A stretch of 58,725 bases of DNA from a virus (lineage: Duplodnaviria; Heunggongvirae; Uroviricota; Caudoviricetes). Position numbers: made by a program. Shown piece by piece: positions 27,001-30,000 of the stretch (within the stretch, counting starts at the first letter, position 1; each line of letters opens with the position of its first letter). The stretch lies in IMG/VR virus record IMGVR_UViG_2718218104_000006. The stretch is one strand, 5' to 3'.

Positions 27001-30000
27001 TGCAGCCAGGGTCCAGGCTGATGAATGAGCTTCTCCGGGTTTATCTTCGGTCATACTGTTGCAGTGCCACAGCGAGCCCCCCCACGTCACCGTATCGCCG
27101 GGGTGGTAGGTTTCACCGGCTCTGAACACACCACGGTAGAGCATCACCGGCAGGGAAAATGTTTTTTCCGTACGCTGGCCACTGCTCTGCCGGACCACCA
27201 CAGAGAACGACCGTTCACCCGTCATGCTGACGTCAATATCCGCCACCCCGTCAACCAGGCATTCCCATCCCCGCATCCCGTACGTTTTTTCATACGCCCG
27301 CCAGAGTCCACCCTGGTGTGTGGCATACGAGCCCCGGGGAAAGGATTTTTGATCGTCAATGGCGGGGAGTATTTCCAGTGCCGTGGCATCACGCCCGTCC
27401 TGCGGAGCCGGCAGGGCACTCACCGCCTCCAGAACCGCCTTCTGCAGAACATCCGGATCGTAGTCACGACCATCACGCGGAACAGGAATATGGCTTACCG
27501 CCTCCTTCACCATCTGTTCAAGCATCGGATGCACATCATCCGGAGTGATACTTTTACCGTCTGCCGGTACCGGTATTTTCGCGACCGCATCATTCACCGC
27601 CTTCTGCAGAACATCCGGATCGTAGTCACGACCATCACGCGGAACAGGAATATGGCTTACCGCCTCCTTCACCATCTGTTCAAGCATCGGATGCACATCA
27701 TCCGGAGTGATACTTTTACCGTCTGCCGGTACCGGTATTTTCGCGACCGCATCATTCACCGCCTTCTGCAGAACATCCGGATCGTAGTCACGACCGTCGC
27801 GCGGAACAGGAATATGGCTCACTGCCTCTTTCACCATCTGCTCAAGCATCGGACGCACATCATCCGGGGTGATACTTTTGCCGTCTGCCGGTACCGGAAT
27901 ATTCGCAACCGCATCATTCACCGCCTTCTGCAGAACATCCGGATCGTAGTCACGACCGTCGCGCGGAACAGGAATATGGCTCACTGCCTCTTTCACCATC
28001 TGCTCAAGCATCGGACGCACATCATCACCCGTCACGCACTTCTGTAATACCACAGACTGAGAAGCCAGTTTTTCTTCAAACGTTTGTGCCTGCGCGGCTA
28101 TTTTCTCCTCAAATGTACGCTGTAAATCCGCCAGCACCATGGCGAATTCTTCGCCCAGTGCACGAATAATGGACAGTTCCCGTTCCGTCATTTTCGCAGT
28201 ATCCCCCTGAACATCGCTTTCACCGCATCATGCTCTGTTTCACTGATTGCCTTATTACCGTCAGATGCGCCATCAGGCAGTTGTGCTGAGACTGTTTTCC
28301 CGGACGACGCGAACGGATCCTCACGGGCATCACGACGGGACAGCGCCTCCAGACTGTAGTTCTGCTGCTGAAGATACAGTGCATCACCGCCGGCCAGGGG
28401 CGGCAGGTTCTCACGTTTACGGGCCTCATTGGGCGTCAGCAGCGTATTTTTCACCGACTCACCCAGCGTTTTCATGCGCCGTTCGCTGTCCATTCTCAGC
28501 AGCGTGGTGACGTCAAACTCCGTGCTCTCGTTTTCCCCCGTTTCCAGCGCCTCATCCAGTAACAGCTCAATGGACTCAATCAGCGTCTGCAGACACTGGG
28601 AATAATACTGCTGCTCCAGCGCCTCCACGTTATCACTGGAGGGAGGTTGTCCCACACCAATCTTGTAGGCCGGGACACGGAACACCGAACAGACAATTTC
28701 AGCGGTCATTTTCAGTTGTTCCACCGTCTGCGCATCCACCGGTGAAAACGTCGTGGGGTTATATTTCGCCCCGTTGCTCAGAATCGCCGTTTTCCCCGCA
28801 TTTTCGCCGGTATACCCGCTGTCCCAGTTGCTCTTCAGTTTTTTCGCATTTTCTTCCGTAATACTGCCGGGGATCTCAATCACCCCGGACGGCCTGCCGC
28901 CATTTCTGAAAAAAGACGTTGAATTTGCCTGAATATGATACCCCTGCGTGGCAGCCAGCCCGGCAGCATACACCGGCGGCAGCCCCACAAGCGGATGAAA
29001 AAAACAGTTAAACCGGTCGTGGATCACTTCCCGGGCAGGCACCGTCACCGCCTCCGTGATCCCGCAGTTCCGGTCCGGCGTGATGCGATAGAACACCTCG
29101 CCGTCATCCGCCACCAGAGGTTCAACCCGGCTCCAGTCCAGAATACGCAGTTCTTTGATCTGCCCACGGGAGTTACGGATTTTCAGCACCACCGTATTGC
29201 CGTGACGCAGTTTGGCGTTCAGCCACAGTTCAAAAAACTGGATACGATTCTGCTGTGCATTGGGACGACGACAGAGACGGGCAATATCCCCCTGCCGTTT
29301 TTCACGGCGGATCCCCTGTGTATCGGTCTGCATCAGGCGCAGCCGCATTTTGGCGATATCCTGGGATATCAGCGAAATGCAAGAAAACACCGCATGAAAG
29401 GAGAGGACACTTTCCGGATCGGCTTTCACTCCCTGCTGCCAGGCACCGGCAAAAGGCTCAGCCACCGCCTGAAACAGGCTGGTCCAGCCCACCTCTTTTA
29501 CATCACGTCCTGATTTCTGGTTTTTTCGGGGTCGCCGCAAAAGGTTCCACATTCGCCATGCTCCGCATCACGTTTCTTTTTCTGACCTGCCGGACGTCGC
29601 GCTGTGATGTACTCCGCCTTCCCCAGGCGAACCAGCACCTCCGCACACGGCTGTGCCACATCACGGATATCCCCGGCCCGGGCATCATGCGTGCCCTGCA
29701 GATACTGGATTTTTGCCATCAGTTACTGCGGGAAGCTAGCGCCTCCCGCCCTCCTCATCAGACTCAGCCGCCGGACGCAGTTCCGTAGTTCACACCGGTG
29801 ATCACAGCCACCGCCGCGGTACGGCGACGACGCCAGTTGATCCAGCGCTCCGCACGGATGGCCACGCTGCCGGTCTGGAACATGGAGACCAGCTCCACCG
29901 GTGACGGTGTGCTGCTGTCGCTGGTCGGTTCAGACTGCATCTCCAGTGACGCTTCACGGGACATATCCACCGCCACACCACCGTCATCCGCCAGATAAAT

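Follow-up and report, generated by a model that had tools for sequence, protein, structure and literature searches.

The window analyzed here, a stretch of 58,725 nucleotides (nt) from IMG/VR virus record IMGVR_UViG_2718218104_000006 (Caudoviricetes), comes from a lambdoid prophage of Escherichia coli O157:H7. Between its portal gene and its gp6-like head-tail connector gene lies a minus-strand open reading frame (ORF) of 405 amino acids (aa) at 26974-28191, termed X herein, which carries a tandem array of 54-aa repeats. Is X a gene in its own right or the detached end of a broken portal gene, and what could a repeat protein do in a phage head module? Judging from gene order and junction sequences, the view that X is a distinct protein family, the near-obligate partner of one portal subfamily, and made by coupled translation is well supported. 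As to its role, we give roughly an even chance to the reading that X is a portal-tethered protein composed of a spacer and a binding domain, most likely located on the interior (crown) side of the portal; the interior placement is the least certain step of this reading.

The portal partner and its family

An exhaustive HMMER search, counted as cluster representatives at 50% identity, returned 5,563 members of the X family at E ≤ 1e-3 and 623 at E ≤ 1e-30. Most are stand-alone proteins of 250 to 600 aa with an N-terminal helix, 1 to ∼28 half-repeats (27 aa each in the window), and a conserved C-terminal domain of ∼135 aa, often terminated by a few collagen-like G-x-y triplets. The family is not covered by any Pfam or NCBIfam model in our local libraries. 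The gene order large terminase (TerL), prohead protease/major capsid protein (MCP), portal, X, connector was kept in 80 genomes of Alpha-, Beta-, and Gammaproteobacteria (Enterobacterales, Pseudomonas, Burkholderiales, Rhizobiales, Sphingomonadales, and Caulobacterales). Since this set had been found by searching for X, the reverse test was run from an alignment of portals: X lay directly downstream (64 loci) or was fused to the portal (5 loci) in 69 of the 71 portal-anchored loci that extended far enough downstream, at portal identities as low as 48%, which makes it a near-obligate partner in 97% of the loci of this portal subfamily.

In the window, the parts of the locus are the following:

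26974-28191, minus strand: ORF X, 405 aa, repeat-containing portal-partner protein (ORF list; matches to PHROG 2271 and PHROG 1289)
28027-28191, minus strand: N-terminal region of X, aa 1-55 (AlphaFold2 full-length model)
27379-28026, minus strand: repeat array, 4 × 162 base pairs (bp) = 4 × 54 aa = 8 half-units of 27 aa (Tandem Repeats Finder and protein register)
26977-27378, minus strand: C-terminal domain of X, aa 272-405, predicted all-beta, with a CBM5/12-like module at about aa 352-395
28203-28207, minus strand: poly-G tract, five G's in the window, inside the 3' end of the portal ORF (junction comparisons)
28188-29552, minus strand: portal protein, 454 aa, HK97-type, PF04860 (Pfam E = 1.4e-80; synteny)
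26645-26971, minus strand: gp6-like head-tail connector gene (Pfam PF05135)

The ATG of X (28191-28189) shares bases with the portal stop codon TGA (28190-28188), as ATGA, and the junction appears set up for translational coupling of the two genes. Across lineages, the start of X likewise overlaps the end of the portal gene (ATGA, TGATG, ATGnnTGA, and others), with a Shine-Dalgarno (SD)-like purine motif 7 to 11 nt upstream, and the frame offset between the two genes varies (−1 in 47 loci, +1 in 22). Together, these features argue for translational coupling rather than a conserved programmed frameshift, and for two genes as the ancestral state. The candidate programmed frameshift from portal into X was rejected because the frame relation of the two genes varies and X starts, in all lineages, at an overlapping codon of its own; the E. 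coli junction, read in the portal frame, has no heptamer of the form X XXY YYZ. X and the connector look translationally coupled, too. The connector ATG lies 2 nt past the X stop codon in the window and overlaps it as ATGA in X alleles of 407 aa, and an AGGAGG motif in the final codons of X, 8 to 9 nt 5' of the connector ATG, is kept in both the 405-aa and the 407-aa classes. These classes differ by one G/T single-nucleotide polymorphism (GGC TGA versus GGC GGA AAA TGA; window positions 26969-26980) just 5' of the connector start.

At ∼55 loci, mean identity to the window copy was 52.9% for the C-terminal domain of X, 51.0% for the portal, and 53.9% for the capsid protein, and in a paired comparison of 44 loci the domain was at 56.2% versus 40.2% for the connector. 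The N-terminal region of X diverges fast between genera. A C-terminal domain that evolves at about the rate of portal and MCP points to a core head component with a conserved partner, not to a rapidly diversifying receptor tip. What makes the family worth following is that a protein without a described function accompanies one portal subfamily across three proteobacterial classes and is conserved like the capsid. Two other links to the neighboring genes were considered and dropped: a hidden Markov model of the repeat unit gave no match below E = 0.01 in 71 portals, so the portal C-terminal tail was not taken as a degenerate X repeat, and the proteins named "gp6-like head-tail connector, partial," which might have been fusions of X to the connector, end at the normal C terminus of X.

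The G tract at the portal-X junction

Many relatives, and RefSeq, treat X as the C-terminal half of the portal gene, a point absent from an earlier note on this DNA. In PHROG 2271 ("portal protein," 859 positions), X aligns to positions 455-859, and the two window ORFs add up exactly (454 + 405 = 859); X also matches the stand-alone PHROG 1289. A single 859-aa portal-X protein is found in the records of Stx2a_WGPS6 and of phage 2851, which has been described as a transducing phage, and the two-ORF form is found in phage 1717, BP-4795, Salmonella phage FSL SP-016, and the window. In E. coli O157:H7 strain 4276, whose closed chromosome is 100% identical to the window over 2,701 bp, RefSeq/PGAP treats portal and X as one "frameshifted" portal pseudogene.

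If this annotation were right, X would be the dead C-terminal half of a frameshifted portal gene and its repeats would have no function of their own. The 859-aa proteins of some relatives fit such a history, as does the state of the capsid gene in the same prophage, which has a real 1-bp deletion: the protease/capsid gene (29764-31700, minus strand) is split into two overlapping ORFs by a change of GGG to GG at ∼30699, versus intact genes of 1,938 nt in WGPS8 and WGPS6, and RefSeq likewise calls it frameshifted. This deletion may mark a defective prophage copy or a homopolymer error in the assembly. For X itself, we nevertheless consider a pseudogene very improbable, given that in all other genera examined portal and X are normally two separate genes that overlap, that the split is the inferred ancestral state in E. 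coli (see below) and is shared by the BP-4795 and FSL SP-016 records, and that X has its own ATG and SD-like motif, is under purifying selection, and lacks a portal Pfam match.

The split and the fused form differ only at a poly-G tract, located seven codons ahead of the portal stop, in which five G's (G5) give the split and six (G6) an in-frame fusion. The tract coincides with the SD-like motif of X, AGGGGGA, 11 nt before its ATG; an SD-like motif occurs at the same place in other genera. Of 82 E. coli-type loci, 51 were G5 and 31 were G6. On a tree built from 870 nt of flanking sequence, the root was G5 and at least 5 changes between the states were needed, versus ∼25 if the states were random, and several loci with identical 870-nt flanks differ in G count. 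As a candidate homopolymer contingency (phase-variable) locus, the tract shows at least 5 changes, but it is short (5 to 6 nt), and some of the cases are possibly sequencing errors. Fusions also occur in other lineages, namely in Pantoea (1,237 aa; P0226/L102), in Brevundimonas (L156), and at a metagenomic locus (L235).

X gave no match to PF04860, which the upstream ORF matches at E = 1.4e-80, and in the Pantoea fusion P0226 the alignment to the portal profile stops around residue 380, short of the X part. Calling X a "portal protein," as PHROG 1289 and 2271 and several database names do, looks like an annotation transfer from fusions. The comparisons support well that the window, with G5, has the ancestral two-gene arrangement rather than a lesion, and the RefSeq call of a frameshifted portal is probably wrong here. 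The split form makes up about 60% of the E. coli-type loci sampled, for which a pseudogene call would wrongly score the portal as broken, and 1,247 of 5,426 complete E. coli genomes carry the head module with X.

The G5 allele reads AGG GGG ATA in the portal frame (28201-28207, minus strand), that is, a GGG codon preceded by G and followed by the rare isoleucine codon AUA. A −1 slip in the ribosomal P site at GGG-AUA would enter the X frame without meeting a stop, and so a low level of portal-X fusion from G5 alleles is conceivable; the GGG-AUA feature is not conserved in other genera.

The repeat array and its length variation

The earlier note had described, from 27390 to 28030, about four tandem 162-bp coding repeats of a 54-aa unit in a head-region gene between portal and connector. 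All of this was borne out, and the coordinates were essentially right: Tandem Repeats Finder reported a single array at 27434-28026 (period of 162, 3.7 copies, 97% matches, no indels, score of 1053), the protein register gives four units on the minus strand (28026-27865, 27864-27703, 27702-27541, and 27540-27379), and the ORF list and Pfam matches place them in that gene. Each unit falls into two related half-units of 27 aa, in each of which an amphipathic helix leads into an (I/L)P-x-P-x-DG-x-(D/S) loop (typically IPVPxDG). Because the eighth half-unit has diverged, near-identity at the DNA level is limited to 3.7 copies. Units 1 to 3 differ from each other at 5 to 12 nt, almost all of them synonymous (10 synonymous and 2 nonsynonymous differences between units 1 and 3). 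The net charge of the array is about −17, and the 162-bp repeat was found nowhere else in the window. A plus-strand ORF of 340 aa (27025-28047) runs antisense through the repeats; it was rejected as a gene, being a mirror ORF of a repetitive, stop-poor sequence without independent support. Pfam matches to TetR_C_35, DUF4244, and FliG_N in the repeats were also discarded, since they were sums of repeated weak matches in which no single stretch passed.

The warning that such repeats are prone to copy-number change and to assembly collapse proved well founded. Among 80 related IMG/VR loci, X is 353, 405/407, 461, 515, or 569 aa long, which corresponds to 3 to 7 units in exact 54-aa steps, and four units are the commonest class. 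Alleles one unit shorter are present in closed E. coli genomes and in deposited Shiga toxin (Stx) phage genomes, and the closed genomes show both 3- and 4-unit alleles. The closest protein database matches are mostly "partial" proteins on contigs of ∼2 kb, consistent with the 648-bp near-perfect array breaking short-read assemblies of prophages from Shiga toxin-producing E. coli. Might the four copies of the window be an assembly artifact, collapsed or expanded? Short reads do not span the array, and many draft assemblies are interrupted within it. However, the sequence of the window is identical in the closed genome of strain 4276 (copy number and G5 state there rest on one closed assembly), four units are the mode among the 80 independent loci, the length classes differ by exact units, and both the 3- and the 4-unit alleles occur in closed genomes. 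At the level of sequence comparison, nothing suggests a collapsed or inflated array, and we regard an artifact as the least probable of the explanations weighed here.

Internal units are near-identical within an allele and differ between alleles (IPAPRDG versus IPVPRDG, and IPQPADGKSLTP versus IPVPADGKSITP), which indicates concerted evolution by unequal recombination or slippage. Median ratios of nonsynonymous to synonymous substitution rates (dN/dS) among E. coli alleles were 0.25 for the N terminus, 0.13 for the repeat unit, and 0.21 for the C-terminal domain, so that the whole of X, repeats included, appears constrained. With in-frame head-to-tail copies of 54 codons and alleles that differ by whole units, the array is a coding variable-number tandem repeat, and it is well supported that the repeats form a real, constrained, and recombining spacer. 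As a natural length polymorphism, the array could mislead or help prophage typing. Very long arrays were seen in L224 (IMG/VR; 5504-8071), P0125, P0150, and P0226, where X reaches ∼780 to 860 aa with roughly 14 to 28 half-units. In some members with long arrays, the loops are of a PEPEPLPD type instead of PxPxDG, indicating that the repeat also varies in the chemistry of its loops.

Predicted architecture and proposed placement of X

AlphaFold2 modeling gives X three parts. In the full-length model, the N-terminal region forms a single long helix (aa 3-52; predicted local distance difference test [pLDDT] of 80 to 86), a candidate anchor or oligomerization helix. The repeat region is modeled with low confidence (pLDDT of 45 to 75) as eight helices of 13 to 18 residues separated by 12-residue loops, which fits a flexible element or one that needs to oligomerize. 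The C-terminal domain of ∼135 aa, modeled with a 76-sequence alignment, is predicted to be all-beta with ten strands (pLDDT of 95 to 97). In a local Pfam search, X of the window matched PF02839 (CBM5/12) at 20.2 bits and homologs at 18.8 to 24.8 bits, below the gathering threshold of 26.2 bits; many homologs carry PF02839.20 in precomputed annotations. The predicted small beta fold can be superposed on solved chitin-binding domains, resembling the CBM5/12 modules of Serratia ChiB, Streptomyces griseus ChiC, and a Vibrio chitin deacetylase, and the nearest structural matches of the C-terminal domain are chitinase CBMs and phage fiber tips. A sequence search of the PDB with X gave one weak match only, to the CBM-like part of All3316. 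On the predicted structure, the CBM5/12 relationship holds at the level of fold and for part of the C-terminal domain only.

The favored reading, a portal-tethered spacer with a binding domain, combines this architecture with the genetic association. X would be made roughly one-for-one with the portal protein, and its N-terminal helix would hold it on the portal dodecamer, close to the portal C terminus and on the interior (crown) side. The C-terminal domain would bind a conserved partner at a distance set by the acidic repeat stalk, and the copy number would change through unequal recombination or replication slippage between units. Portal fusions would be tolerated and recur because the N terminus of X normally lies beside the portal C terminus. 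Portals of known structure have a C-terminal crown that opens toward the capsid interior (PMC10276861); portal C termini that face the capsid interior favor an interior location of X.

The main rival is an external neck or collar fiber (whisker) or surface decoration, in which the helix docks at the portal/adaptor vertex on the outside of the capsid, the repeats form a shaft of variable length, and the CBM5/12-like tip binds a host or environmental glycan. The earlier note had likewise suggested that the repeat domain might be a surface decoration or adhesion module. That suggestion stands in part: the repeats themselves are predicted to be a helix-loop spacer, and the candidate binding module is the nonrepeated C-terminal CBM5/12-like domain. 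Beyond this domain and its structural matches to phage tail-fiber tips and to fiber proteins with collagen and ChiC_BD parts, an external fiber would account for the collagen-like G-x-y tails of some homologs, the free variation in length, and the gene's position beside the neck genes. Several of its strengths weigh directly against the interior reading. External phage fibers usually follow the same plan of anchor helix, variable stalk, and CBM-like tip, and the strongly acidic stalk, which counts in favor of a fiber shaft, is awkward beside packaged DNA. The G6 fusions could be tolerated loss-of-function alleles of X rather than functional equivalents, and all five X alleles with additional disruptions in our sample are G6. 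To these come the low model confidence in the repeat region, G5/G6 discordances some of which may be homopolymer sequencing errors, and literature searches for X that found no proteomic, structural, or genetic data, so that we infer both its presence in the virion and its position.

An external adhesin is made doubtful by three observations. Fusions to the portal C terminus, which faces the interior in solved portals (PMC10276861), are recurrent and include the phage 2851 genome. The C-terminal domain evolves slowly, tracking portal and MCP conservation, and is not hypervariable as receptor-binding tips are. And X is near-universal with its portal type rather than sporadic. We therefore regard an external fiber as unlikely, though it is the alternative to be taken most seriously. 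The position of X would distinguish between an internal structure attached to the portal of these siphophages and a neck fiber of a new kind.

A quite improbable alternative is that X acts in the procapsid only, as an assembly factor whose twelve portal-tethered arms bind the capsid protein or a scaffold-protease polyprotein, nucleate the shell, and are then degraded or expelled. X is acidic, helical, and elongated, as such a factor might be; it is translationally coupled to the portal, its C-terminal domain is conserved to the degree of the MCP, and these phages have no separate scaffold gene and a protease often fused to the MCP. Yet a scaffold would hardly be expected to vary from 3 to 7 units, and up to ∼28 half-units in relatives, CBM-like domains are not known to take part in capsid nucleation, and in G6 phages X would stay covalently attached unless it is cleaved.

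The favored reading can be extended, more doubtfully, to the whole group. X may be a part of the virion in nearly all members of a very large group of HK97-like temperate phages, a crown-tethered internal fiber that serves as a portal "barrel" in trans, with its length set by the recombining array and with the E. coli poly-G tract, in its own ribosome-binding site, toggling between trans and cis forms; we regard this combination as possible but less likely than not.

The barrel of the P22 portal gp1 is a continuous 12-helix coiled coil, always in cis, that projects from the crown into the capsid. X resembles it as a helical C-terminal extension of the portal, literally so in G6 alleles, but it has tandem repeats, proline-rich loops, and a terminal beta domain and is normally a separate polypeptide; no sequence relationship to the gp1 barrel was seen, although no test aimed at one was made. 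SPP1 gp7 and MuF-like proteins (PF04233) bind the portal inside the capsid, and members of the family have variable C-terminal modules. The X gene is likewise directly downstream of the portal gene, but Pfam and PHROGs scans of X and its homologs gave no MuF-like/SPP1 gp7 (PF04233) match, and the predicted fold, the repeats, and the CBM-like tip differ. T4 fibritin (wac) is an external trimer on the neck proteins that ends in a foldon, is neither coupled nor fused to the portal, and lacks near-identical tandem repeats; X shares its general plan of an N-terminal anchor, a shaft of short helices with loops, and a small C-terminal beta domain, would likewise be placed at the portal/neck vertex, and differs in its coupling or fusion to the portal, its CBM-like tip, and its near-identical repeats. 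Finally, Foldseek matched the C-terminal domain to collagen-repeat and ChiC_BD-tipped phage fibers and to fiber or receptor-binding proteins of Agrobacterium phages 7-7-1 and Milano, with low TM-scores of about 0.2 to 0.35. Those proteins belong to the tail or baseplate and to tail modules, whereas X is in the head module and linked to the portal. By these sequence comparisons, X falls outside the portal and MuF families and every other curated family tested.

On the minus strand, the wider order is large terminase, prohead protease/major capsid, portal, X, gp6-like connector, head-closure protein, HK97 gp10-like protein, and major tail protein. The major tail protein (24726-25571, minus strand) has a C-terminal Ig-like domain (Pfam Ig_2/Ig_3/I-set); its gene is annotated in relatives as a coding sequence (CDS) of 717 or 846 nt and is marked as frameshifted by RefSeq in strain 4276. 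The annotations of strain 4276 and BP-4795 (ORF57) list an ORF of 73 aa (29498-29719, minus strand), which overlaps the 5' end of the portal gene, as a hypothetical protein; WGPS6 and WGPS8 have a shorter hypothetical-protein CDS at this position. O157 lambdoid prophages and a Pankowvirus Stx2c phage have been described as forming long-tailed particles with elongated (prolate) heads (PMC2669165, PMC12029490). On the strain 4276 chromosome (L084; 32670-42701), the region 3' of the tail genes carries the type III effector genes nleL, espN, and espK together with IS2 and effector gene remnants, which identifies the element as an effector-exchange lambdoid prophage and not an Stx phage.

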